Assembly (NCBI GenBank): GCA_947474935.1
Contig: CANJKL010000003.1
Span: 13,963 to 77,962, forward strand
From: Opitutia bacterium
GTDB lineage: Bacteria; Verrucomicrobiota; Verrucomicrobiia; Opitutales; Opitutaceae
DNA: 64,000 nt
Reading direction: 5' to 3'
In this document: one piece after another, positions 14,455 to 40,330 of the stretch
Numbering within the stretch: the stretch's first letter is position 1
How the letters are laid out: every line of letters starts with the position of its first letter
Made by a program: the position numbers and the translations under genes
The notes under the pieces: model-generated
Database searches by the model: none
What the model saw: only the letters and a program-made list of their open reading frames with translations
What the model was told of the DNA's origin: nothing

Positions 14455-15108
14455 ATGTCGAAGCTTTTTCCTAAGTCGGCGAACAAGCTCCCGCTCCAGA
14501 TCGTAATCTACCTTGCGGTGCTCGGTAGCATCGCGACCGCGGGGGTTACGTACTACATGACGCCGAAATACACCCGCGTCGGGTATGCGCCCGTGCAGCC
14601 GGTGCCTTTCAGTCACGCCCAGCACGTCAAGGAGATCGGCCTCGATTGCCGTTATTGCCACTCGAACGTCGACAAATCCGGCCATTCCAATGTGCCGACC
14701 TCGCAGACGTGCATGAATTGCCACTCGATCATCAAGGCTAATTCGGCGCTGCTTGCCCCCGTGCGGGAAAGCTTTGCGAAGGGCACCCCGGTGCCGTGGG
14801 TTTGGATTCACGCGACGCCCGATTACGCCTTCTTCAACCACGCCGTCCACGTGAACCGCGGCGTTTCCTGTGTGGAATGCCACGGCAAGGTGAACGAGAT
14901 GGACACCGTGACCCACATGCAGCCGCTCAGTATGGGCTTCTGCCTTGAGTGCCATCGTGATCCGGCCTCCCGGCTGCGTGATCCGAAAGACGTGTTTAAC
15001 CTCGATTCCAAGCGGCTCGTCGATCAGGGCCGCCAGGCGGACGCGGCGAAGTTCGTCCACGATTGGAAAGTGATGCCTCCCCAGAGTTGCTCCGGCTGCC
15101 ATCGATGA
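14455..15108 (+). CDS. actA: Alternative complex III pentaheme cytochrome c subunit
   Basis: N-terminal TM; five CxxCH (CRYCH, CMNCH, CVECH, CLECH, CSGCH); QPVPFSHAQH; first gene of an act-type cluster. Confidence 0.9.
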   Translation: MSKLFPKSANKLPLQIVIYLAVLGSIATAGVTYYMTPKYTRVGYAPVQPVPFSHAQHVKEIGLDCRYCHSNVDKSGHSNVPTSQTCMNCHSIIKANSALLAPVRESFAKGTPVPWVWIHATPDYAFFNHAVHVNRGVSCVECHGKVNEMDTVTHMQPLSMGFCLECHRDPASRLRDPKDVFNLDSKRLVDQGRQADAAKFVHDWKVMPPQSCSGCHR

Positions 15109-18100
15109 AACGCAAACTTGAACATCCCGCTCCGTCGGAACGCGAGCTGTCCGGTCCCAAATACTGGCGCAGCCTCGATGAGCTTGCGGCTACGCCCGGA
15201 TTCAAGGCGCAGCTGGAACGTGAGTTCCCGGAAGGCGCGGACGAGCTGACCGGTTTTGACCGCCGCCACTTCATGAAGCTGATGGCGGCTTCGTTTGCCC
15301 TCGGTGGCGTGGGTCTGGCCGGCTGTCGCCGTCCGGAAAAGAACATTCTGCCCTACGGCAAATCGGTGGAAGGCGTGATCCCGGGCCTGCCGCAATATTA
15401 CGCCACGGCGATGCCGTTGCGGAAGAGCGCGATCCCGTTGCTGGCGGAAACGCATCAGGGCCGCCCCACCAAGCTCGAAGGGAACCCGACCTATGCGCCG
15501 CACGGTGGCGCGGCCTCGCTGATGGCGCAGGCGTCCATCCTCGATCTATACGATCCGGATCGCGCCACGGCTCACACCAAGGGCGGCGCGGTTTTGAAGG
15601 CGGAAGCCGTCAATCAGCTGCTGGCCGGCATCAGCCAGAATTTTGGCGGCAATCAGGGATCCGGGCTGGCATTTCTAGCCGAGGAATCCGCCTCGCCGAC
15701 GCGGGCGCGCGTAGTCGCGGCCCTGCGCCGCAAGTTCCCCCGGGCAGTCTGGGCGGAATATGAGCCGGTGATCGACGAGGCTCCGGCCGCCGCGGCTCAG
15801 GCCGTGTTTGGGGCGAATGTAAAGCCGCTCTACCATTTTGATAAGGCCCGCCGGATCGTTTCGATCGACGCGGATTTCCTGCAATCCGAGTCGGGCAGCC
15901 TTTATCACGCGCGGGCCTTTTCGAAGGGCCGCCGCGTGGCGAAGAAGGACGACCCGATGAACCGCCTCTACGTGGCGGAAAGCGGTCTGACGATTACCGG
16001 CAGCATGGCCGATCACCGCTTGCGGCTCGCGAGCAGCCACATGCTGGCCTTCGCCGCCGCCCTCGCGGTTGAGACGGTCGACGGTGCCCGTGAGATGCTT
16101 CAGTCTTTCGCACAGGGACTCGATGCCAGCCCGAAGTGGATCGAGGAATGTGCCACGGATCTGAAGGCCCACCGCGGGGAGTGCCTGGTGGTGGCCGGGG
16201 CGCATCTCCCGGTGCAGGTTCACGCGATCGTTTATTCGATCAACGCGCTCTTGGGAAATATCGGCCGGACGGTCGATTTTGTTGCCGTTGATCCCTCCGG
16301 CGCCGCGTCAATTTCGGATCTCGCCGCGGTCATCAAAGGCGGCTCCGTCAAGACGCTTGTAATCTTGGGCGGCAACCCCGCCTACAACGCCCCGGCCGAT
16401 CTCGACTGGCCGGCTTTGCAAGGCTCGGTCGGTGAAGTCGTGCGTTTTGGCTATTATGCCGACGAGACGTCCGCGCTGGGTGGGACCCACCTCGCCGCGG
16501 CGCATTATCTCGAATCATGGGGCGATGCCCGGACCGTCGATGGAACGATTGTTCCGGTGCAGCCGATGATCCTGCCGCTGTTTGGCGGACTGACGGAAAT
16601 CGAAGTGCTGGCGCGTCTGGCTGGGGAAGAAAAAACCGACCCCTACGAACTCGTGCGCACCACGATCAGCGGGTTGGCCGGCGGTGACGCCGACCGGGCG
16701 ATGAACCGGTTCCTGCACGACGGCGTGCTGGCGAAGTCCGCCTATTCCCCGGTACAGGTGGCGTTCAACCGCCAGTCGATGAGCACCCTGTTTCGGCAGC
16801 CCGCGACGGCGACGGCGGTGGCGCTCAGTGCCAAGAATCTCGAAGTTCGTTTCGTCGCCGATCACAAGATGGACGACGGCCGTTTCGCCAACAACGGCTG
16901 GCTGCAGGAATGTCCCGACCCCATCACGAAGATCTCGTGGGATAACGCGATTCTGGTCAGCCCGAAGCTGGGACGTGAACTTGGCATCGATCCCAAGGGC
17001 GCCCTCATCCAGGTGGCGCGGAAAGAGGAAGCGGAATTCTCGATGGGCAAGGAAAACGCGTTCGTCTTTGAGCTTTCGATCGGTGGGCGCAAGATCCGCG
17101 GTCCGGTGCATATCCAGCCCGGTCTGTCGAATTACACGGTGATCGTGCCGCTCGGTTACGGCCGCACGCAAGTCGGTCACGTGGGTAAAGGAGCCGGCTT
17201 CAGCGCCTATCCGCTTCGCACCGCGGCCGCGATGCACGTGGCGACCGGTGCGACGCTGACGAAGACCGCAGCCCGCATGTTCCTGGCGAACACGCAGGAG
17301 CACTGGTCGATGGAAGGCCGTGAGATCATCCGCGAGGCGAATTTCGAAAAATCCGGGAAGAGCAACGGTAACAGTTACCAGGAAAATCCCGCCTTCGTGA
17401 ATACGTTCGGGATGGAGTCGCATTCGCCGACGATCCTGGGCGAATACGGCGAGAAAATGTCGCCCCAGCAGCGGGCCACGCTCGTCCCGCGCGGCAATTC
17501 GCTCTACGAGACCCCCACCTTTGACGGGCTTCACCAGTGGGGCATGTCGATCGATCTCAACACCTGCATTGGCTGCAATGCGTGCGTGGTCGCCTGTCAG
17601 GCGGAAAACAACGTTCCGATTGTCGGCAAGGACCAGGTGCTGCGCGGCCGTGAGATGCACTGGCTGCGCATCGACCGTTACTATTCCACCGGCACCGCCG
17701 ATGGCGGTGCATTTGGCGGGGAAGGCAACCGCGAGTTGCCCGAGGATCCGCAGGTTTCGCTGCAGCCGATGGCCTGTGTCCACTGTGAACTTGCGCCGTG
17801 TGAAACGGTGTGCCCGGTCAACGCGACCGTGCACGATGAGGAAGGCCTGAACGTCATGGCCTACAACCGTTGCATCGGCACCCGCTATTGCGCGAACAAT
17901 TGTCCCTACAAGGTCCGCCGCTTCAATTTCTTCGACTGGAATCAGCGTTCGCTTGATCAGCTTTACATGGGCCAGCTGGCGTCCTTCGGCATGCCGGAGC
18001 TCGTCAAGATGGTGAAGAATCCCGAGGTCTCCGTGCGCATGCGCGGGGTGATGGAAAAGTGCACCTATTGCGTGCAACGGATCCAGAACGGGAAGATCCA

Positions 18101-18485
18101 GCACAAGGTGAAGATGGCGCAGGCCGGAACGCCTGGTGACGTCATCGTCCCGGATGGCGCGATCCGGACCGCCTGCGAGCAGACCTGTCCCGTCGGTGCG
18201 ATCACCTTTGGTAACATTCTCGACAAGGAAAGTGCCGTGATGAAGGCCAAGGATCGGGCACAAGACTACGCGGTGCTGGGGTATCTCAACACCCGTCCGC
18301 GCACGACTTATTCCGGCAAGCTGCGTAACCCGAATCCGGCGATGCCCGATTACGAGTCGCTGCCGCTGAGCCGCATCGAATACAACAAGAAGAACGTTCC
18401 CGCCGGTCACGGTGCGGCCGCCGGACACGGCGCGGCCGGACCTGGCGCTCCGGCGCATGGTGCGGAAAAGAAGGGTGGGCACTAA
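15105..18485 (+). CDS. actB: ACIII subunit B: Tat lipoprotein, molybdopterin-oxidoreductase-like domain fused to an Fe-S domain
   Basis: YWRSLDEL, Tat motif DRRHFMK, lipobox [14 protein letters not shown]; Fe-S motifs [42 protein letters not shown]...CEQTCP. Start at ATG 15105 (ATGA overlap with actA). Confidence 0.93.
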
Positions 18486-18609: not shown

Positions 18610-20055
18610 ATGGCCCACACTTCTGAAAATGCAATGGCGGCTCCGGCGATCTTGAACGAGGTCAACCCGGCGGTTTTACCGCGGGCGGTGCTGGTCCATA
18701 ATAACCGCAGTTTCTCGTGGATCACCGAAAAAATCTGCGGGATCATCGAAGGCAAGACCCCGGCTTGGTGGTGGGTATGCTTCGTTCTGGCGTGTTTCAT
18801 CGCTTCTTTCACGGTTGGGGGCATCACCTACCTGGTGACCACGGGCGTCGGCGTGTGGGGCCATGCCAATCCGGTCAACTGGGCGTGGGACATCGTCAAC
18901 TTCGTTTTCTGGATCGGTATCGGCCATGCCGGCACGTTGATTTCCGCCATCCTGTGTCTGCTGCGCCAGAAATGGCGCACCTCGATCAACCGTGCCGCCG
19001 AGGCCATGACCATCTTCGCGGTGGTCTGCGCCGCGATCTTTCCGGTCTTTCACGTCGGTCGTATTTGGTATGCGTGGTATCTGTTCCCCATTCCAAACTC
19101 GAATGTCATCTGGCAGAACTTCCGTTCCCCGCTCGAGTGGGACGTGTTTGCCGTTTCGACCTACGGCACGGTTTCAGTATTGTTCTGGTATATCGGGCTG
19201 ATTCCCGACTTGGCGGTGTTGCGTGATCGCTTCTTCGCGGCCGGTAACAAATTTCGCTCCTTCCTCTACGGATTGTTCGCGATGGGTTGGCGCGGATCGA
19301 ACCGCCACTGGAGTAATTACGAGATGGCCTACCTGATCCTGGCCGGCGTCTCGACGCCGCTGGTGCTCTCGGTGCACACGATCGTTTCGTTCGACTTCGC
19401 CGTCTCCCTGCTCCCCGGCTGGCATACGACGATCTTCCCGCCTTACTTCGTCGCCGGCGCCATTTTCTCCGGTTTCGGCATGGTGCTCACGCTCATGTTG
19501 CCGCTGCGCGCGATCTACCGCCTCGAGGACCTGATCACGCAGTACCACATCGACTGCATGTGCAAGGTGACCTTGGCGACCGGCACGATCGTGGGCTACG
19601 CCTACGGTATCGAGTTCTTCATCGCGTGGTATGGCGCGAATCCCTACGAGGGTTTTGCGTTCATCAATCGCGCCTTCGGCCATTACGCGTGGGCTTACTG
19701 GATCATGATTTCGTGCAACGTGATCACGCCACAGTTCTTCTGGTTCAAGGCCGTGCGGGAAAACACCACGCTGGTTTGGGTGCTCTCCATTTTCGTGAAT
19801 GTCGGCATGTGGTTCGAGCGCTTTGTGATCATCGTCACGTCGCTGGCCCGCGATTTCCTGCCTTCGAGCTGGGGTTATTATTCCCCGAGTGTGGTCGAGA
19901 TCTTCACCTTCTTCGGCACCTTCGGCGTCTTTTCGGTGCTCTTCCTTCTGTTTATCCGTTTCCTCCCCATCATGCCGATGGCCGAACTCAAAGCGGTGAC
20001 TCCACAGGCGGACGTCCACGGTGGCCAAGACGCGAGCGTGGCGCACAAACACTGA
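18610..20055 (+). CDS. actC: ACIII quinol-binding membrane subunit C (NrfD/PsrC family)
   Basis: [68 protein letters not shown]. Confidence 0.93.
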
Positions 20056-20061
20056 TCGACC

Positions 20062-20595
20062 ATGGCTGCACCTTCCCACGGCCTGATCGCCACCTTCAAC
20101 ACGGCTCCCGAGCTGTACCACGCCGCGGAAAAAATCCGCGACGCCGGTTACCGCCACTGGGACTGCATCACGCCCTTTCCCGTGCACGGGCTCGACAAAG
20201 CCATGGGGCTGCGGCGTTCGATTGTGCCGCGGATCTCCCTGGCCGGCGGCATCGCCGGATTTTTCACCGGAATGACGATGATCTGGTGGACGGGTGCCTA
20301 CGACTACAAGCTGATCGTCGGCGGCAAACCGCTGTTCAGCCCGATGTTCGCCTTCCCGGTGAGCTACGAGCTCACGATTTTGTTCACCGCCTTTGCGACG
20401 ATCATCGGCATGTTCATCGTGAACGGACTGCCGATGCACTATCATCCCGTGCTCAAGTATGACCAGATCCGGCGAGGGATGGACGACACCTTCTTCATCG
20501 TGATCGAGGCGCGTGACCCGCGTTTCAATTCCGCCAACACCAAGGCCCTGCTCGAAACGGCCGGCGGGACCAACATCTCGGAGCTCGAGGCCTGA
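20062..20595 (+). CDS. actD: ACIII subunit D (DUF3341-like)
   Basis: TPFPVHGLDKAMG, IVGGKPLFS, YELTILF; position between actC and actE. Confidence 0.88.
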   Translation: MAAPSHGLIATFNTAPELYHAAEKIRDAGYRHWDCITPFPVHGLDKAMGLRRSIVPRISLAGGIAGFFTGMTMIWWTGAYDYKLIVGGKPLFSPMFAFPVSYELTILFTAFATIIGMFIVNGLPMHYHPVLKYDQIRRGMDDTFFIVIEARDPRFNSANTKALLETAGGTNISELEA

Positions 20596-20598
20596 GCC

Positions 20599-21237
20599 AT
20601 GCGCAACGTCTACCTCGTCACCCTGTTCGTTTGCGTGCTGCTGGTCTCGATTCTGGGCCTGCGGGGCCGGATCTTCACCGCGCCGCCGATGGATGTTTTC
20701 CCGGAGTGGGCCTTTCCCGGCATGAAGTATCAGCCGAAGTTGCGCCCGCAGTCGCACAGCGACTTTTTCGCCGATGGCCGCGCGGACCGGATGCCGGTCG
20801 CGCGCACCGTCGCCCGCGGCATGCTCCGCGAGGACGATGGACTTTACGCGGGCAAGGATTCCTCCGGCCAGTTTGCCCGTGGATTTCCCGTGGCGATCAC
20901 GGTCGACTCCAAGCTGCTGGAACGCGGGCGTGACCGCTTTGAAATCTATTGTGCGCCTTGTCACGGGTCACTCGGCGACGGCAATGGCATCACCAAGCGC
21001 TACGGCATGGGCGCGACGCCGTCTTATCACGACGACCGGATTCGCAATCTGCCGGAAGGTGACATTTTCAATACGATCACGAACGGCAAGAACACCATGA
21101 TGCCTTACGCCGACCAGCTCGTGCCCGAGGATCGCTGGGCCGTGGTCGCCTACGTCCGGGCCCTTCAGCGGGCACAACAAGGCAAGCCCGGAGACGTCAC
21201 GGACGCCGCGGCGCGTCAGAAACTTGGCATTCAATGA
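20599..21237 (+). CDS. actE: ACIII monoheme cytochrome c subunit E
   Basis: MKYQPK, FADGRADR, single CAPCH, ITNGKNTMMPY, DRWAVVAYVRALQ. Confidence 0.88.
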   Translation: MRNVYLVTLFVCVLLVSILGLRGRIFTAPPMDVFPEWAFPGMKYQPKLRPQSHSDFFADGRADRMPVARTVARGMLREDDGLYAGKDSSGQFARGFPVAITVDSKLLERGRDRFEIYCAPCHGSLGDGNGITKRYGMGATPSYHDDRIRNLPEGDIFNTITNGKNTMMPYADQLVPEDRWAVVAYVRALQRAQQGKPGDVTDAAARQKLGIQ

Positions 21238-22514
21238 GCTCTCACGCTGCAACTGTATCCGCTGCCGGCGTCCCCGCCGAGCAATCGTCCGCCGCTCTGG
21301 CGGGCAAGGCGCTCACCATTGGCTTCGTGGGTCTCGCCCTGACCGCGGTCGGGCTCTTCGTTTCCGGAGCTTCGGCGGTCGCTTTGTCCTACCTCGTGGG
21401 ACTCACCTATTGGACGGCGATCGCGATCGGCATGCTTCTGCTGATCTTCATCCACCACATCTTTGATGCCTCGTGGTCCGTGGTGATCCGCCGCCAGTGG
21501 GAACACGGCCTCGCCGCCTTCAAGTGGCTCGGGATCCTGTTCCTCCCGCTGATTCTCGCCTCACTGTTTTACCAGCGCGATCTCATCTGGCCTTGGATGA
21601 ATCCGGGCCACGAAATCCACGGTGGGCATACGGTCGGACAGGATCCCCTCTATTTGAAGAAGGAGGGATTTCTGAACCTTAACGCCTTCGTCATCAGCAC
21701 GGCGGCCTTTTTCCTCCTGTGGATGTGGTTGTCGGCGCGCCTGCGGAAAGCCTCGTTTTCCCAAGACAGTGACGGCGAATTGAAGTGGACGACGATGAAC
21801 CGCAAGACCGCCGCGTTCGGCATTCCGATTGCAGCGCTCACGCTGACGGCGGCGGCAATCTTCTGGGTCAAGAGTCTCGAATACCACTGGTTCTCCACCA
21901 TGTACGGGGTGTGGTTTTTCGCCAACTGCGTCCGCGGGGCGTTGGGTTGTGGCGTCTTGATCATGGTCTGGCTTTGGGGCCGTGGTGACTACAAGGGCAT
22001 ACTCAACAAGAATCACTTTCACAGCATCGGGATGCTGATGCTCGCCTTCACCGTGTTCTGGGCCTACGTGACCTTCTCGCAGTATTTCCTGATCTGGAAT
22101 GCGAACGTTCCCGAGGAAACTTTTTGGTACAACCTCCGCGAAGTGAATCACGACGGTTCGCCCAACCAGTGGAAATGGGTCGGCATCTACGGCATCCTTT
22201 TCGGTCATTTCTTCATCCCGTTCTTTGCCCTGCTCTCCTACCGGTACAAGGTAACGCCGCACATCATCCGCCGGATCGCACTCTGGATTCTGTCGATCAT
22301 CCTGCTCGACATGTGCTACAACATCCTGCCGTCGCTGAAGGATGCGCACGGTGACTCCCTGCCTTTCCTTTCGATCAATTTGCTCTGGGTGGCGACCTCG
22401 GTGGTCGGAGTGGGGGGCGTTTGCGTTTGGGCCTACCTCCGCAGCTTCCCGACGGCGAAACTCATTCCGATCCGTGACCCGCGCATCGGCGAAAGCCTCA
22501 CGCACCATGAGTGA
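21234..22514 (+). CDS. actF: ACIII membrane subunit F
   Basis: About 10 TM segments; SLEYHWFSTMYG, FWAYVTFSQYFLIWNANVPEE; IPIRDPR C-terminus. Confidence 0.88.
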   Translation: MSSHAATVSAAGVPAEQSSAALAGKALTIGFVGLALTAVGLFVSGASAVALSYLVGLTYWTAIAIGMLLLIFIHHIFDASWSVVIRRQWEHGLAAFKWLGILFLPLILASLFYQRDLIWPWMNPGHEIHGGHTVGQDPLYLKKEGFLNLNAFVISTAAFFLLWMWLSARLRKASFSQDSDGELKWTTMNRKTAAFGIPIAALTLTAAAIFWVKSLEYHWFSTMYGVWFFANCVRGALGCGVLIMVWLWGRGDYKGILNKNHFHSIGMLMLAFTVFWAYVTFSQYFLIWNANVPEETFWYNLREVNHDGSPNQWKWVGIYGILFGHFFIPFFALLSYRYKVTPHIIRRIALWILSIILLDMCYNILPSLKDAHGDSLPFLSINLLWVATSVVGVGGVCVWAYLRSFPTAKLIPIRDPRIGESLTHHE

Positions 22515-22836
22515 TCCGACCGCCAGTTCGCCTCGCCCGGTTTCGTTGCTCACGACCCTCTTCGTCCTCGCGCTCTTCGCCGCGTTCTTCTTCGTCGTGC
22601 GCCACTATTATCAGCCGGCCGGCACGGCGGCTTTTGTCGCGACTCCCGAGAACCTGACGAAGGAACTCGAATGGAAGGCCTCGCGGGCTTCGCGCCAGAA
22701 AACGCTTCAGGAGGCGCGCCAAACCGAGGCGGATCGCGCCCGTGCTTATGGCTGGGTCGACCAAAAATCCGGCATCGTGCAACTGCCGATCGAGCGGGCG
22801 ATGGAACTGACCGCGCAACAACACGGCAAAAAATAG
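22507..22836 (+). CDS. ActG-like small single-TM subunit
   Basis: ATG at 22507 overlaps the end of actF; one TM then YGWVDQKSGIVQLPIERAMEL, which resembles the ActG C-terminal motif. Confidence 0.65.
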   Translation: MSDPTASSPRPVSLLTTLFVLALFAAFFFVVRHYYQPAGTAAFVATPENLTKELEWKASRASRQKTLQEARQTEADRARAYGWVDQKSGIVQLPIERAMELTAQQHGKK

Positions 22837-22864: not shown

Positions 22865-24289
22865 ATGATCAACGCTCCGACCAATGGCGCTTCGGCCGAA
22901 GTTACCGCCGTCGACACCACCACCCGCTGGCCCCTGCTCTTTTTGATCGGGTCCGGCATCGTCTGGCTTCTCGTCAGCGGTGTGCTCGCGCTCATCACTT
23001 CGATCCAATTGCATTCGCCCCAATTCATGGCGGACTGTTCCTGGCTGACCCACGGCCGCGCCGTGGCGGAGCGTGAAACGGCCTTCGTTTACGGCTGGGC
23101 GGCGAACGCCGGGATCGCGATCGCGCTTTGGGTGCTAGCCCGGCTGGGCGGATCGCCGCTGCGAGGGACGAACTGGCTCTTCATCGGGACGCTGTTTTGG
23201 AATCTGGGTGTGGCGATTGGCCTCGTCGGCATCGCGACCGGAGACATGACGACCTTTGCGTTCCTGCAGCTACCCGCCTACGTGCAGCCGTTGATGCTTT
23301 TTTCCTACGGTGCGATGGCTGTGGCCGGCGTGCTCGCCTGGTCGGGCCGCCGGGCGGATGGCACTTATGCCGCTCAATGGTATGCGGTGGCGGCGCTGTT
23401 CCTCTTTCCGTGGCTCTTCTCCGCGGCTCAGGTCGTTCTTCTGTGGGCGCCGGTTCGCGGAACGGTGCAGGCCGTAGCCGCCGGCTGGTTTGCGCAAGGG
23501 GCTTGGACGCTCTGGCTCGCCCCGCTCGCGCTGGCGGGTGCCTACTATGTTGTGCCCAAGGTCAGTGGGCGCGCGCTTCGCAGTTACGACTTCGCCTCTC
23601 TGGGATTTTGGACGCTGATTACGGTTGGCGCCTGGTCGGGTGGACGGCACCTGATCGGTGGACCGGTGCCCGCTTGGGTCGCCACCATGGCGGTGGCGAG
23701 TTGCTCGCTCCTCGTTGGGCACTACTTGATTGTATTTCTCAATTTGCGTGGCGCCGTTGGGGCTGGTGGCACGGCGCTCAACTTCATCACGTTCGGATTG
23801 GTCGCTTACACCTTGGGCGGCCTGCTCGACTCGATCACCGCATTCCGTGAAATCGCGCTGCAAACCCAGTTTACGCTGGTCTCCAGCGCCCAGCAGGAAC
23901 TCGCGCTCCACGGCGCCCTGTCGATGATGCTGTTCGGCACGATCTACTACATGGTGCCCCGTCTCACCGACCGGCCATGGGCCTCGGCCGGATTTATCGG
24001 GGCACACCGTTGGCTCGCCACCGGCGGCGTGGTTCTGCTCGTCCTCGCGCTGGCGATTGGCGGCTGGACGCAGGGGGCCGACCTGCTGGCGCCCAAGACG
24101 TCCTTCGCCGCCATTCATGGCCATTTGAAACTTCCCCTGCTCGCGGTCACGGCCGCCTATGGCTTGCTGCTGGCGGGCAACATCCTGTTGTTGGTTAATT
24201 TCCTCCGGAGCGCGTGCGTCTGTGGCTCGACCACGGCAACGGTCACGCCCTTCCGCCAGCCCTTGAACATGGAAGCGACTGCGCCATGA
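22865..24289 (+). CDS. Degenerate cbb3-oxidase subunit I-like (CcoN-like) membrane protein lacking most heme/CuB ligands
   Basis: Aligns by eye along CcoN landmarks (WLTHGR, YAAQWY, YYVVPK, SY..A.LGFW, YYMVPR), but the ligand positions read R, Q, R-H, Q-x-E. Confidence 0.8.
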   Translation: MINAPTNGASAEVTAVDTTTRWPLLFLIGSGIVWLLVSGVLALITSIQLHSPQFMADCSWLTHGRAVAERETAFVYGWAANAGIAIALWVLARLGGSPLRGTNWLFIGTLFWNLGVAIGLVGIATGDMTTFAFLQLPAYVQPLMLFSYGAMAVAGVLAWSGRRADGTYAAQWYAVAALFLFPWLFSAAQVVLLWAPVRGTVQAVAAGWFAQGAWTLWLAPLALAGAYYVVPKVSGRALRSYDFASLGFWTLITVGAWSGGRHLIGGPVPAWVATMAVASCSLLVGHYLIVFLNLRGAVGAGGTALNFITFGLVAYTLGGLLDSITAFREIALQTQFTLVSSAQQELALHGALSMMLFGTIYYMVPRLTDRPWASAGFIGAHRWLATGGVVLLVLALAIGGWTQGADLLAPKTSFAAIHGHLKLPLLAVTAAYGLLLAGNILLLVNFLRSACVCGSTTATVTPFRQPLNMEATAP

Positions 24290-24972
24290 AAAACGGACCG
24301 CTTTTTCTGATCGGCCTCTTTATCGCGCTCGTGCTTTCATGGGCGGGCTTGGTGCTGGGCTCCCATGTCCAGTTCGGCGCCTTGACGCCTTATTATGATG
24401 ACACCGAGGGCGCGTCGTTTCCCTCGCGTTCGTCAGGCATCGCCGCCCGCGGCCAGTTTGTTTACGCTGATCTGGGGTGCGCCGCCTGCCATACCCAGCA
24501 GGTGCGCCGGCCCGATTTTGGCAGCGATCAGGCCCGGGGTTGGGGCGAACGCCAAAGTGTCGCCCGTGACTACATCTTCCAATCCCGGCCGCAACTGGGG
24601 GCATCGCGCCTCGGGCCGGATCTGACCAATCTCGCCGGTCGCAAGCCCTCCGCGCCCGATGCCGAGGATCTGATGAAGCTGCTTTACGCCGGTTCCGGAC
24701 TCCACCCGGCCTACAAATTCCTGTTCGATGAACGTGAAATCGTCGGGCAGCGGTCCGACAAAGCACTGACTCTTTCCGGTAAACTTGCCCCGCCGGCCGG
24801 CCGGGAAATTGTCGCCACGGAGCGCGCCCAGAGTCTCGTCGCCTATTTGCTGAGTTTGAACAACGGCTACGACTATCCAGAATCCCGTCCGCTGCCGAAA
24901 CCCGCCGCTGGCGGCCATGGTGGTACGACGGAAAAGCATGGTGAAACGAAGATGCCGGAGGGAAAGAAATGA
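24286..24972 (+). CDS. CcoO/FixO-like monoheme cytochrome c (variant)
   Basis: N-terminal TM, GQFVYADLGCAACHTQQVR, LGASRLGPDL (cf. CcoO GSKRTGPDL), then HPAY where CcoO has MPxY; ATGA-coupled to the CcoN-like gene. Confidence 0.82.
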   Translation: MKNGPLFLIGLFIALVLSWAGLVLGSHVQFGALTPYYDDTEGASFPSRSSGIAARGQFVYADLGCAACHTQQVRRPDFGSDQARGWGERQSVARDYIFQSRPQLGASRLGPDLTNLAGRKPSAPDAEDLMKLLYAGSGLHPAYKFLFDEREIVGQRSDKALTLSGKLAPPAGREIVATERAQSLVAYLLSLNNGYDYPESRPLPKPAAGGHGGTTEKHGETKMPEGKK

Positions 24973-25637
24973 GTACGCCCCCGAATTCCGATCCTCGGCT
25001 CGATCAAGCGGCTGTCACCGACGACAGTCTGCTTGCGGCGCACGAAAAACTCGCTGGCAAGCAGCCCGATGAGCAGGGGCGCTACCGTTTGATGCCGCTG
25101 AGCCTGCTGTTCATTTTTAGCGGGCTCATTTTTTTCGCCGGCACGTACCTCGGGCATTACTCGGGCGATTTTGATGCGCATGTCTTCGACGAGCATGGCC
25201 ACGCCAGCAAGGGCGGCGCGGCCGCCGCTCCCGCCGCCAATCCGATCGAGGTTGGGAAAAAGGCGTTCAACAACGCTTCCTGTAACACCTGTCACCAATC
25301 GACCGGATTGGGCGCACCGGGAGCGATTCCTCCCCTTGTGGCCTCGGAATGGGTCACGGGTTCGGAAGAACGCCTGATTCGCATCGTGCTTTATGGGTTG
25401 CAGGGCCCCATCAAGGTCAACGGAACCGATTATAACTCGGCCATGCCGGCCTTCGGCAAGGTGGCCGGTTCAGGCTTTAATTGGACGGACGATCGGATCG
25501 CCGCGACCCTGACCTATATTCGGCAGGAATGGGGCAACCAGGCTGGACCGGTCACCCCACAAAAAGTCACCGAGATCCGCACCAAGGAAGGCGACCGCAA
25601 GGCCTTCACCGCCGAAGAGCTCCTCAAGCTTCCCTGA
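24969..25637 (+). CDS. Membrane-anchored class I monoheme cytochrome c
   Basis: TM segment, CNTCH, PPLVASEWV, LYGLQGPI, SAMPAF (Met ligand); ATGA-coupled. Confidence 0.87.
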   Translation: MSTPPNSDPRLDQAAVTDDSLLAAHEKLAGKQPDEQGRYRLMPLSLLFIFSGLIFFAGTYLGHYSGDFDAHVFDEHGHASKGGAAAAPAANPIEVGKKAFNNASCNTCHQSTGLGAPGAIPPLVASEWVTGSEERLIRIVLYGLQGPIKVNGTDYNSAMPAFGKVAGSGFNWTDDRIAATLTYIRQEWGNQAGPVTPQKVTEIRTKEGDRKAFTAEELLKLP

Positions 25638-25663: not shown

Positions 25664-25692
25664 AGCCGCGATCTACGGATCGCGGCTTTTTT
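25664..25692 (+). terminator. Intrinsic terminator ending the ACIII operon
   Basis: AGCCGCGATC-TACG-GATCGCGGCT followed by TTTTT. Confidence 0.8.
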
Positions 25693-25727
25693 GTTCCGCC
25701 TCGGTCTGCCGGCCGGCGCCGCGGGCT

Positions 25728-36151: not shown

Positions 36152-36958
36152 TCAACTCTGCTTCCGCTCCGCATGGCCGGGCCGGCTATCGGACTGGTAC
36201 CAACGGTAGAAAATAATCGCGAATGCAACCCCGGTAACGCCGATACCGACGAGTTTCATGGCGGAGCCGGCGAGCAGTTGGTCATCGGCCGCGGAGAAGT
36301 TCGCAAACAGCCGGGGCGCGAATTCGTAGGTGGGGTAGAGGATATCGCTTGAAAACGTGATGTAGGCAAAGACCGGGGTCATCGCGATCACCATCCCGGT
36401 GAGGTAGAGCATCTGTGCGCCGAAGCGGACGGGAGGAAATACGCGGGACGGGCTCAGCAACGGCCACCAATAGAAGAGGGCGGCAGTGAAGAAGCTCACA
36501 TGCTCGGCGACATGCACGAGCTTGTTCTGGAGTGCCAGGTCGTAGGCGCTGGGTACGTGCCAAAGACTGATGCTGAGAGTATAGACCAATCCGCAGATGA
36601 GCGGGTGCGCAAGAAATCGACCCGGTCCGCGCAAGCCCGGCCGGTTGAGCGCGGCATCGACCATCCATTGGGGCAGCCCGAGAAGAAAAAGGATGGCGGC
36701 GGGGTAGATCAGCAACTGGTGCTGCAGCATGTGGGCGCTGAAAAGAAAACGTTCGCCGATCTGGTCCAGCGGCGAGCCCACCGCCAGATAAAAGACAAGG
36801 AGCGCCCCGTAGAAATACCACGCCTGCCGCCGGGGGTAGCACGCCGCCGGTGCCAGTCGTGAACGCAAGGGCCCGGCCAGCACGGCCCAGAGCCAGCCGA
36901 GAAAAACCAGCCCGCCGACAAGGTACGGCTCGTTGTGCCAATGGCGCCAGTCAATCAT
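36152..36958 (-). CDS. ctaG: caa3-type cytochrome c oxidase assembly factor CtaG
   Basis: SPLD....FLFSAHMLQH, LWHVP, EHVSF..A.FYWWP, DDQLLAG. Confidence 0.85.
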   Translation of the reverse strand: MIDWRHWHNEPYLVGGLVFLGWLWAVLAGPLRSRLAPAACYPRRQAWYFYGALLVFYLAVGSPLDQIGERFLFSAHMLQHQLLIYPAAILFLLGLPQWMVDAALNRPGLRGPGRFLAHPLICGLVYTLSISLWHVPSAYDLALQNKLVHVAEHVSFFTAALFYWWPLLSPSRVFPPVRFGAQMLYLTGMVIAMTPVFAYITFSSDILYPTYEFAPRLFANFSAADDQLLAGSAMKLVGIGVTGVAFAIIFYRWYQSDSRPGHAERKQS

Positions 36959-38356: not shown

Positions 38357-40330
38357 TTAGTGCTTGGCGTGAGGGTCGTCGACGGGCTTGCCGTCCTTGT
38401 CGAGGTGGAGGTGGTAGCCTTCATTGCCCTCGAGCGACCAGAAATAGATGCCGACGAACATAACGGCGCCGCCGATCAGTGAGAGACCGAGCTTGGGGCC
38501 GATGCCCGGGCCTTGTCTGGCATCGAACACCGTGATCCCGACGGCTCCGATCAACAGCCCCAAGCTGGCGACCAGCGGCCAGATCGAACCGAAGGGCATG
38601 TGGATTCCGCCGTGCGCATCCTCTGCCTTCGCGTGCTCGGTTTTTTCCCGGGCGATTTCGTCCTGGTGGTGTTTTTCGTACCACCAGGCATCACGGGCAT
38701 GGACGGTCGGGATGACGCGGAAATTATATTCCGGGGGCGGATTGGGAATCGACCACTCGAGCGTGCGGCCGTCCCAGTAGTCGCCCTTGACGCGTTCACC
38801 TTTGAAATAGGAATACACCATCACCGCAAAATAGATGAAGATGCCGACGCCGAGGATCAGGGCGCCGATCGTTGCAATGTAGTTCGCCGTGTTCCAACCG
38901 AGGTTGGGGTCATAGGTGAAGGTGCGGCGCGGCATGCCGTTCAGGCCGAGGAAATGCATCGGGAAGAACGTGGTGTTGAAGCCGGCGAAGATGATCCAGA
39001 AGGAGAGCTTGCCCCAAAACTCGCCAATCCGACGGCCGAACATCAGTGGGAACCAGTAGTGGATGCCGGCGAGCAGGCCAAACACCGAACCCCCGATCAG
39101 CACGTAGTGGAAGTGCGCGATAACGAAGTAGGAGTCGTTTTGCTGCGCGTCGGCGGGCGCGGCGGCATGCATCACGCCGGAGAAGCCGCCGATCATGAAC
39201 ATCCAGAGGAAGCCCAGCGCGAACATCATCGGCGTGCGCATCATCAGATGACCACCCCACATGGTGCCGATCCAGTTGAAGATCTTTACGCCCGTTGGCA
39301 CCGCGATCGCCATTGTGGCCAGCGCGAAGGCCGCGGTTGCGACTGTGCCCATGCCCGTGGTGAACATATGGTGGCTCCAGACGGAGAAACCGAGGAAGCC
39401 GATCGACGCGCCCGAAAATACCACGATCGGATAACCGAACAGCGGCTTGCGCGAAAACGTCGGTAGAATCTCCGAAATGATCCCCATGGCCGGCAGGATC
39501 AGGATGTATACCTCGGGATGGCCGAATACCCAGAAAAGGTGCTGCCAGAGAATCGGCATGCCGCCGCCCGAGACTTCAAAGAAGTTGGTGCCGAAATTGC
39601 GGTCCATCATGACCTCGACGAGCGCGATGGTGATGAAGGGGAAGGAGAGCACGATGAGGAAGGACGTGATGAGCGTCATCCATACGAAGACGGGCAACCG
39701 CATCATCGTCATGCCGGGGGCGCGCATGTTGATGATCGTCACGATGAAGTTCAACGAGGCCGCGATCGACGCGACACCGAGGAGTTGCAGGCCCATGATC
39801 CAGTAGTCGATCGAGTGGCCGGGCGAAAACTGCTTCGAGGTCAGCGGGGCGTAGCCATACCAACCACCATCCGGGGCGCCTTGCAGCTCCCCCGGGATGA
39901 ACCACCCGATGTTGAGGATGATCGCCCCCGCCACGAACGTCCACAGCGAGAAGGCATTCAGCCGCGGGAAGGCCACGTCACGCGCGCCGATTTGCAGCGG
40001 CATGATAAAATTGAAGAAGGCCGATGACAGCGGCATCACCGATAGGAAGATCATCGTGGTGCCATGCATCGTGAACAACGTGTTGTACTGATGGGCGGTC
40101 AGCAGGTCGTTATTCGGCACCATCAGTTGCAGGCGGATCATCAGCGCCTCCAGTCCACCGACGAGAAAGAAGAAAAGCGCAAAGAAGCCGTAGAGGAATC
40201 CGATGCGCTTGTGGTCGACGGTGATCAGCCAGCTCCACAGGCCGGTCTTGGCGGTCGGGTGGGCGAGCAGCCCGGTTTGCGCCGGAGCGTGCTGCTCTTT
40301 CGTCAGATAGGCGGATTTAGCCAGTTCCAT
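38357..40330 (-). CDS. ctaD: Cytochrome c oxidase subunit I, A1 type
   Basis: DHKRIG, TMHGTTM, AFPRLN, FGHPEVY, WSHHM, AHFHY, GMPRR; all six His ligands present. Confidence 0.96.
   Translation of the reverse strand: MELAKSAYLTKEQHAPAQTGLLAHPTAKTGLWSWLITVDHKRIGFLYGFFALFFFLVGGLEALMIRLQLMVPNNDLLTAHQYNTLFTMHGTTMIFLSVMPLSSAFFNFIMPLQIGARDVAFPRLNAFSLWTFVAGAIILNIGWFIPGELQGAPDGGWYGYAPLTSKQFSPGHSIDYWIMGLQLLGVASIAASLNFIVTIINMRAPGMTMMRLPVFVWMTLITSFLIVLSFPFITIALVEVMMDRNFGTNFFEVSGGGMPILWQHLFWVFGHPEVYILILPAMGIISEILPTFSRKPLFGYPIVVFSGASIGFLGFSVWSHHMFTTGMGTVATAAFALATMAIAVPTGVKIFNWIGTMWGGHLMMRTPMMFALGFLWMFMIGGFSGVMHAAAPADAQQNDSYFVIAHFHYVLIGGSVFGLLAGIHYWFPLMFGRRIGEFWGKLSFWIIFAGFNTTFFPMHFLGLNGMPRRTFTYDPNLGWNTANYIATIGALILGVGIFIYFAVMVYSYFKGERVKGDYWDGRTLEWSIPNPPPEYNFRVIPTVHARDAWWYEKHHQDEIAREKTEHAKAEDAHGGIHMPFGSIWPLVASLGLLIGAVGITVFDARQGPGIGPKLGLSLIGGAVMFVGIYFWSLEGNEGYHLHLDKDGKPVDDPHAKH

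Follow-up and report, generated by a model that had tools for sequence, protein, structure and literature searches.

The alternative complex III operon

The DNA studied here is a stretch of 64,000 nucleotides (the window, whose coordinates are used throughout) from contig CANJKL010000003.1 of the Opitutia bacterium assembly GCA_947474935.1. It carries an operon for alternative complex III (ACIII) in which the eighth of ten co-oriented genes, at 22865..24289 on the plus strand, encodes a homologue of subunit I of the haem-copper oxidases (HCO). This protein, named CcoN-like after the subunit I of cbb3 oxidases, is devoid of five of the six histidine ligands and of the cross-linked tyrosine, as read from Pfam, NCBIfam, phmmer, alignments, AlphaFold2 (AF2) and Foldseek.

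All genes of the operon are on the plus strand. The first, ActA (14455..15108), is the multihaem cytochrome c of ACIII, recognized by Cytochrome_C7/c3 Pfam and QrcA-like NCBIfam matches and syntenic in related loci. It is followed by ActB (15063..18485), a Tat-exported molybdopterin-like and Fe-S subunit with a TIGR04519 Tat signal, QrcB/QrcC-like matches and 4Fe-4S domains; by ActC (18610..20055), the NrfD-type membrane subunit (PF03916, 79.6 bits); by ActD (20062..20595; PF11821, 216 bits); and by ActE (20599..21237), a monohaem cytochrome c (PF13442/PF00034). The membrane subunit at 21234..22514 gave no match to any Pfam or NCBIfam family and was assigned as ActF by its position after ActE alone. 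Next, at 22507..22836, there is a small protein of about 109 aa (ORFg, called actG-like in a preliminary description of the locus and at most a putative ActG) with one hydrophobic helix, that is, a single transmembrane (TM) segment, and a probable ATG start (MSDPTASS). ORFg had no family matches, and its C-terminal motif YGWVDxxxGxVxLPIxxAMEL is conserved.

The CcoN-like open reading frame (ORF) runs from the ATG at 22865 to the TGA at 24287-24289, encodes 474 aa and contains no internal stops. A spacer of 28 bp separates it from the TAG of the preceding gene (22834-22836), and an ATGA overlap at 24286-24289 joins its stop to the start of the ninth gene, encoding a CcoO-like cytochrome c (24286..24972). 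The tenth gene (24969..25637) encodes a membrane-tethered cytochrome c. An intrinsic-terminator-like element on the plus strand (25664..25697, hairpin at 25664-25687; 10-bp stem with seven GC pairs, then TTTTTT), 27 bp past the stop of this last gene, closes the operon and is its sole strong hairpin of this type. Lying on the same strand, tightly spaced and in a conserved order within the act operon, the CcoN-like gene would, in operational terms, encode an ACIII accessory subunit.

Homology and fold of the CcoN-like protein

The CcoN-like protein matched the COX1 family PF00115 with 107.9 bits (cut-off 34.8) over residues 27-410, and gave 83.4 bits against the CcoN equivalog TIGR00780, failing its cut-off of 583.15. 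Searching all PDB sequences with phmmer retrieved cbb3 CcoN chains only, aligned end to end (E 1.6e-15 to 1.1e-08), among them 9g6b_A, 8smr_E and 3mk7_A with E values between 1.6e-15 and 1.6e-13. The AF2 model, calculated from an alignment of 20 orthologues, showed twelve long helices with a predicted TM-score (pTM) of 0.85 and a mean predicted local distance difference test (pLDDT) of 77.7. When this model was compared with the PDB by Foldseek, CcoN of cbb3 oxidases came first (TM-score 0.84-0.86, 20-21% identity), followed by NorB of cNOR (0.76-0.77) and then by subunits I of the B and A families. By sequence homology and by its predicted structure, the protein has the 12-TM fold of HCO subunit I, with homology over its full length to CcoN of cbb3 oxidases (P. 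stutzeri 3MK7/5DJQ; P. aeruginosa 8SMR, 9G6B). The skeleton common to both includes W34, G64, R65, W208, P231, W249, P269, W271 and H381, among others.

In addition, an N-terminal cytoplasmic motif, AEVTxIDxxAR, was noticed at residues 11-21 (window 22895-22927), in which E12, V13, T14, D17 and R21 do not vary among 20 orthologues. This segment is disordered in the AF2 model and may be a docking peptide.

Loss of the cofactor ligands

The ligand positions were read both from phmmer pairwise alignments and from an L-INS-i alignment with P. stutzeri CcoN, whose numbering is used for the ligands, the genuine CcoNO of the same genome and four intact relatives. Both axial ligands of haem b are replaced, H60 by R70 (GRLRPLHTN reads GRAVAERET) and H347 by E345, and so is the proximal ligand of haem b3, H345, by Q343 (IGHVH reads SAQQE). 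The CuB ligand H207 is Q211 (WYGHN reads WFAQG), and in the segment where ITVYIWAGPHHL reads ITVGAWSGGRHL the cross-linked Y251 is G255, the CuB ligand H257 is R261 and the third CuB ligand, H258, is kept as H262. The preliminary description of this locus, made from the sequence without database searches, had listed the changes to GRAVAERET, WFAQG, ITVGAWSGGRHL and SAQQE, as well as the full-length frame, its spacer and the ATGA coupling. All of these were confirmed, and the alignments placed no histidine at the five ligand positions concerned.

Measured against what CcoN requires, both haem b axial histidines, the haem b3 proximal histidine and the tyrosine are absent, and one of the three CuB histidines remains. 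The protein does not qualify as a cNOR NorB either: NorB needs histidines for haem b and b3 and three more, with a glutamate, for FeB, and the same histidine positions are affected. Canonical binding of haem b, haem b3 and CuB would be impossible with these residues and, as a consequence, so would the reduction of O2 or NO. The CcoN-like protein is very probably neither an O2 nor an NO reductase, and its sequence suggests that it is free of cofactors.

The same pattern was found in 81 Opitutales orthologues, each of them with two of the six histidines at most. The replacing residues are themselves fixed, Q211 in 80/81 and both G255 and R261 in 81/81, and H262 is present in 78/81. At the H60 position the orthologues have R, Q or A, at that of H347 they have Q, and at that of H345 they have Q, L or I.

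The cytochrome partners

The ninth gene encodes a monohaem cytochrome c (CAACH) matching FixO (PF02433) with 37 bits (cut-off 29.6). The CAACH motif, GPDL and the histidine of GLHPAY were invariant in 79 orthologues. As the methionine of the canonical CcoO motif IMPKY aligns to this invariant histidine, the haem c of the CcoO-like protein is predicted to be His/His ligated. The fusion protein P0248, from a related lineage, keeps MPPY, indicating that the change from Met to His is specific to the subfamily. The product of the tenth gene is a class I cytochrome c, tethered to the membrane and with a single CcoP-like domain (PF00034/PF13442 and a weak TIGR00782 ccoP match), in which CNTCH and MP are conserved. 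The proteins encoded downstream correspond to the partners of cbb3 CcoN, a monohaem subunit of the CcoO type and a cytochrome c similar to CcoP, and both retain their redox cofactor sites whereas the CcoN-like subunit has lost its own.

A natural fusion of a ligand-poor CcoN-like protein with FixO, 706 aa long, was also observed (L120:1118-3238, plus strand).

Conservation and selection in Opitutales

A scan covering one genome per species, with a profile from a 9-sequence alignment, gave 504 relatives, of which the best 80 loci were all from Opitutales. They contain ActABCDEF, the small single-TM ORF, the CcoN-like gene, the CcoO-like gene and the cytochrome c gene in the same order, with gaps at contig ends only: the ActF-position gene and the small ORF were each found in 78/80 loci and the tethered cytochrome c in 76/80. 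The CcoN-like reading frame was open in all 80. A pseudogene had been suspected in genome G108, and this was rejected because the TAA reported there terminates the ORF that lies upstream.

The ratio of nonsynonymous to synonymous substitution rates (dN/dS) was obtained by the Nei-Gojobori method (NG86) as the median over pairs with dS between 0.05 and 1.5; the ratios are approximate, as the median dS of 0.8-1.2 nears saturation. The CcoN-like gene gave 0.28, similar to the flanking CcoO-like (0.25) and cytochrome c (0.26) genes. ActE, ActF and ActB followed with 0.22, 0.20 and 0.19, ActD with 0.13 and ActC with 0.075, the strongest constraint of the operon. All of these values are far below neutrality; ORFg gave 0.33. 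When the same genome pairs of ten Opitutales genomes were compared, nonsynonymous change in the CcoN-like gene was a median of 3.6-fold (range 1.25-7.3) faster than in genuine CcoN(O). The constraint on the CcoN-like gene is relaxed with respect to a working oxidase, yet it is clearly present, and the protein is almost certainly functional and under selection.

Sequence identities within one taxonomic family showed a particular pattern. The ligand-less protein of this genome (G000) is 37-38% identical to those of G012 or G024, whereas identity among their genuine CcoN(O) proteins is 86-89%. The G024 copy is nearer (63-66%) to copies from another family, and some genomes have two ActD genes. 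This suggests either old paralogous lineages or transfer of operons with ligand-less genes.

Origin and distribution of the family

When 1.84 billion cluster representatives were searched exhaustively, 1338 matched at E <=1e-3, 288 of them below 1e-30. Of the best 150 matches, 130 were full-length representatives, and their ligands were surveyed: all six histidines and the tyrosine were present in only four, and the remainder were ligand-poor, with residues at the former ligand positions that vary from cluster to cluster. The ligand-less family comprises at least 125 clusters at 50% identity and spans several orders. Every position conserved in at least 75% of the ligand-less clusters was also conserved in the intact C-family oxidases, the shared skeleton being made of tryptophans, glycines, prolines and aromatic residues together with R65, R93, R162, N293 and H381. 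This comparison with the intact C-family revealed no set of His, Met, Cys, Lys, Asp or Glu that is both conserved across the ligand-less clusters and specific to them.

In trees built with FastTree and IQ-TREE (quick tree), a long and fully supported branch parts canonical CcoN from an ACIII-linked clade in which intact proteins, P0163 and others, are basal. Among 39 ligand-poor proteins sampled, 37 formed one group (Shimodaira-Hasegawa-like approximate likelihood ratio test, 84), and the other two, P0129 and P0170, fell outside it, basal with the intact proteins. The tree requires a minimum of two changes for the loss of ligands, which may nevertheless have had one origin. The ligand-less family descends from intact ACIII-linked cbb3 oxidases.

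The locus of the intact P0163 (L090, GCA_018398935.1) reads ActA-B-CD-E-F, a 153-aa ORF, FixS, COX1, FixO, cytochrome c and a P-type ATPase. ActC and ActD are fused there into one protein of 667 aa with NrfD and ActD domains (L090:5088-7091, plus strand). The intact ACIII-linked cbb3 oxidases thus belong to the same clade, follow the same operon logic (ActA-F, CcoN, CcoO, cytochrome c) and share the signatures HLIGGP(V/I)PAW and FT(H/x)(Y/F)T with the CcoN-like proteins. They differ in keeping the six histidines and the tyrosine, FixS/CcoS and the P-type ATPase, whereas the CcoN-like protein of the window has lost the ligands and its operon the maturation genes. Partial losses were also found: P0129, in an ACIII operon without FixS, retains H60, H207, H345 and H347 and has lost Y251, H257 and H258, and P0137 retains the HH pair. 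Intact, CuB-less and fully ligand-less stages are therefore all extant. The ligand-poor P0128 is ACIII-linked as well; P0132, P0139 and P0155 show the local pattern of ORFg, CcoN-like and FixO genes on contigs too short to reach the act genes.

The synteny of the CcoN-like gene with the act operon extends to other orders (L089, L091, L099 and L100), and loci of two other families of the same class are ACIII-linked with the ligand patterns HSAQKFV and HSGNKFL. Among 151 genomes taken as a sample of the phylum, which are not phylogenetically independent, the ligand-less form occurred in 27/27 genomes of the same order and in seven of other orders of the same class. ActD was present in 34/34 genomes with the ligand-less form, 3-10 kb from it when both were on a shared contig, and no genome of this sample had the ligand-less form without ActD. 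Other classes of the phylum have ACIII plus a fused genuine CcoNO elsewhere in the genome.

Elsewhere in the genome of the window, on a different contig, a genuine cbb3 oxidase is encoded. Its CcoNO is a fused protein of 773 aa with 650.9 bits for CcoN (TIGR00780) and 214.2 bits for CcoO, both above the equivalog cut-offs, and a CcoP-like gene and then CcoG lie downstream. The ACIII-linked CcoN-like gene is consequently an extra paralogue and not the sole C-family gene of this bacterium. Compared with cbb3 CcoN, it differs not only in the absence of the haem b/b3 ligands, two of the three CuB ligands, the tyrosine and the polar proton path, but also in its faster evolution and in its location inside an ACIII operon, without ccoS, ccoI and ccoG.

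Other divergent HCO families are known. gNOR and others described by Murali et al. (2024; PMC11214002) also have altered active sites and no cross-linked tyrosine, as the CcoN-like protein; unlike gNOR, the latter has lost five of the six histidines, including the axial ligands of the haems. The survey of the superfamily found the active-site histidines conserved in all families except gNOR, the first to replace even one (PMC11214002). The proteins described here make up a large HCO-derived family in which nearly all these histidines have been lost and which is still maintained.

Possible role of the CcoN-like protein at the exit of ACIII

That a non-oxidase has been retained and repurposed in an ACIII operon, as the preliminary description proposed, is supported by the conserved synteny, the dN/dS ratio, the ligand loss, the constant presence of ActD and the genuine cbb3 oxidase elsewhere. 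The dN/dS below one with conserved ligand loss, which it had proposed as a check, was found, and its alternative of a loss limited to this lineage with neutral decay was not, given that 81 orthologues share the loss. Among the functions it offered, anchoring of the CcoO-like cytochrome would fit best, judging from the ATGA overlap, the constant adjacency of the two genes and the invariant haem c motif. Docking of ACIII to the caa3 oxidase encoded at 36-42 kb, another of these functions, may also occur.

The CcoN shell of cbb3 oxidases supports the TM helix and the haem domain of CcoO, and also CcoP (3MK7 and related structures). Ligand loss in a gene that selection has kept in eighth place in ACIII operons across Verrucomicrobiota makes it most likely that the CcoN-like protein is a structural platform for two c-type cytochromes, not an oxidase. 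It would be a redox-inert CcoN derivative in which the 12-helix shell is kept and which would hold the His/His haem c of the CcoO-like protein and the His/Met haem of the tethered cytochrome c. These two haems would extend the haem wire of ActA and ActE into an exit relay, passing electrons to separate reductases: caa3 or the genuine cbb3 oxidase in this bacterium, aa3 or NosZ in relatives. We give this scaffold and relay role at the exit of ACIII a probability of roughly 60%.

A cofactor-less remnant of an enzyme within ACIII has a precedent. The molybdopterin-free ActB1 domain of ACIII (PMC5928083) and QrcB represent the same concept, an ex-catalytic subunit kept without its cofactor as architecture; they come from the molybdoenzyme family, whereas the CcoN-like protein has the fold and origin of an HCO and a predicted role. 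ACIII has also been described as assembled from modules of other respiratory complexes (PMC5928083). How it hands over electrons to its partners is unsettled in the literature and, if the proposed role is true, an exit module made from an oxidase shell would be an answer for one phylum.

Several points weigh against this role. We infer both the contacts of the CcoN-like protein with the CcoO-like protein, the cytochrome c and ACIII and the direction of electron flow through the relay. The fusion of CcoN-like protein and FixO is found on a single metagenome contig of 3.9 kb only and may be either a Rosetta-stone fusion or an artefact of assembly, and its AF2 model (block alignment) reached a pTM of 0.72 with a confident shell but a pLDDT below 50 at residues 521-604, in the cytochrome domain. 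The genes of caa3, a possible electron acceptor of the ACIII operon, are not contiguous with it: the cluster lies about 10 kb beyond, on the opposite strand, with CtaG at 36152-36958 and CtaD, the A-family subunit I, at 38357..40330 on the minus strand (PF00115, 520 bits, window 38855-40207, equivalent to G000:C3:52817-54169), and the strong terminator and unrelated genes are in between. Finally, Q211, G255, R261, H262, H286 and H381 were classed as invariant in the Opitutales subfamily (with the count of 78/81 for H262), and this remodelled polar site may bind something.

Such residues bear on a different explanation, in which the shell is not a passive anchor but a module for energy coupling or for ion or proton conduction that adds charge translocation to ACIII. 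HCO shells contain proton paths, the energy coupling of ACIII is unresolved in the literature (PMC5928083; PMC8498564), and Q211, R261, H262, H286 and K232 are fixed in the Opitutales subfamily. However, at the positions that reportedly line the single proton path of the C-family (Buschmann et al. 2010), S240, T215, E323 and Y251 among them, polarity has gone. S240, T215 and E323 are A244, A219 and L321 in the CcoN-like protein, and across the ligand-less clusters S240 is A in 103/125, T215 is G or A, E323 is L and Y251 is G or A. Moreover, the only charged or polar residues within the membrane that are conserved throughout the family are those also found in real CcoN. The channel function raised in the preliminary description is disfavoured by these replacements, and we regard conduction by the shell as unlikely.

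It could also be argued that the CcoN-like protein is an assembly or regulation factor, either a platform for cytochrome maturation or a decoy for partners of the CcoO/CcoP type, and not a stable ACIII subunit. Stoichiometric incorporation is not proven by operon position alone, and in Pseudomonas aeruginosa hybrid cbb3 isoforms are known to arise from orphan CcoN subunits (PMC10790758). On the other hand, the ATGA overlap with the CcoO-like gene suggests equimolar synthesis and the gene order is universally conserved; in the genuine cbb3 oxidase of this genome CcoN and CcoO are fused, so that a separate CcoO is not needed, and the methanotroph-like genomes considered below have the dead form and no genuine CcoN to regulate. 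Such a factor seems rather improbable. We attach similarly little weight to a more elaborate proposal in which ACIII would be a hub with the haem-less shell as an obligate, stoichiometric part, the two c-haems would branch to caa3/aa3, cbb3 and NosZ, and the former CuB pocket (Q211, R261, H262, H286) would have acquired a new role, for example ion or proton gating or sensing, coupling electron exit to energy conservation.

The protein might instead bind haem or metal through non-canonical ligands and be a divergent oxidoreductase and not a pseudo-enzyme. The retention of H262, the invariance of H286 and H381 in Opitutales and the subsets of ligands in P0129 and P0137 would agree with this. Nevertheless, the ligand-less family has no conserved set of His, Met, Cys, Lys or Tyr, and its former ligand positions vary freely between clusters; H286 is specific to the subfamily and H381, present in intact CcoN, is not new. 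The dead operons are also without FixS/CcoS and the Cu-ATPase, both found in the intact ACIII-linked operon. Cofactor binding is very doubtful. Lastly, a pseudogene in neutral decay whose frame is merely still open would explain the lost catalytic residues and the faster evolution, but it can hardly be reconciled with an open frame at all loci, the low dN/dS, the invariance of the replacing residues and a family of this breadth.

Methanotroph-like genomes and the annotation as cbb3 oxidase

Three copies of pmoA are present in each of three genomes with a size of about 2.3 Mb, and no genuine CcoN was detected in these genomes (TIGR00780 <=28.5 bits). One of the three, G132 (2.25 Mb), has an ACIII-linked CcoN-like protein with the ligand pattern S-E-S-S-H-F-V and no Pfam matches (locus L096, G132:C1:953001-973000, minus strand). 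A nosZ-nosD cluster lies there between ActF and the module of ORFg, CcoN-like, CcoO-like and cytochrome c genes, and an A-family COX1 is directly downstream. This arrangement agrees with the published description of Methylacidiphilum caldifontis IT6, in which the ACIII cluster encloses the nos cluster and has aa3 and 'cbb3' genes as neighbours.

In a review of verrucomicrobial methanotrophs, the ACIII genes adjoin those of a cbb3-type oxidase, which is listed among three types of complex IV (PMC8498564), and other genome papers likewise count cbb3 as a working high-affinity terminal oxidase (PMC6688271; PMC11102522). The published verrucomicrobial ACIII-cbb3 set appears to be the same gene set as that of the window; it has been treated as an oxidase, whereas the form of the window and that of the three pmoA-bearing genomes are ligand-less. 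NCBI, UniRef and JGI also label proteins of this family as 'cbb3-type cytochrome c oxidase subunit I'. Genome studies of Verrucomicrobiota are in this way counting ligand-less proteins as a high-affinity terminal oxidase and, since this form, next to ACIII, is the only CcoN-like gene found in the three methanotroph-like genomes, inferences about microaerobic respiration may be wrong. In the transcriptome study of IT6 the 'high-affinity cbb3' genes were not differentially expressed between oxic and anoxic conditions, which fits an ACIII accessory as much as an oxidase.

No description of ligand loss in ACIII-linked CcoN was found in the searchable full-text literature, an earlier mention in Refojo 2010, Ducluzeau 2008 or Sousa 2012 being possible. 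Within that literature, a cofactor-less family of ACIII-linked CcoN proteins looks undescribed.

Other genes of the window and of the genome

Beyond the terminator of the act operon there are genes unrelated to it, for an epimerase, ProC, a FabF-like protein and others, on mixed strands. On another contig of the same genome, a weakly COX1-like ORF of 488 aa was detected (L007:11018-12484, minus strand, equivalent to G000:C9:143146-144333), with a PF00115 score of 32.8 bits, just under the cut-off, and with no PDB or NCBIfam match. It was rejected as a member of the CcoN-like family, with which BLASTP gave no significant match. This ORF sits upstream of a COX2-like gene, a COX1 of 587 aa, an SCO1-like gene and a cytochrome b/4Fe-4S fusion, and it may be another degenerate oxidase subunit.

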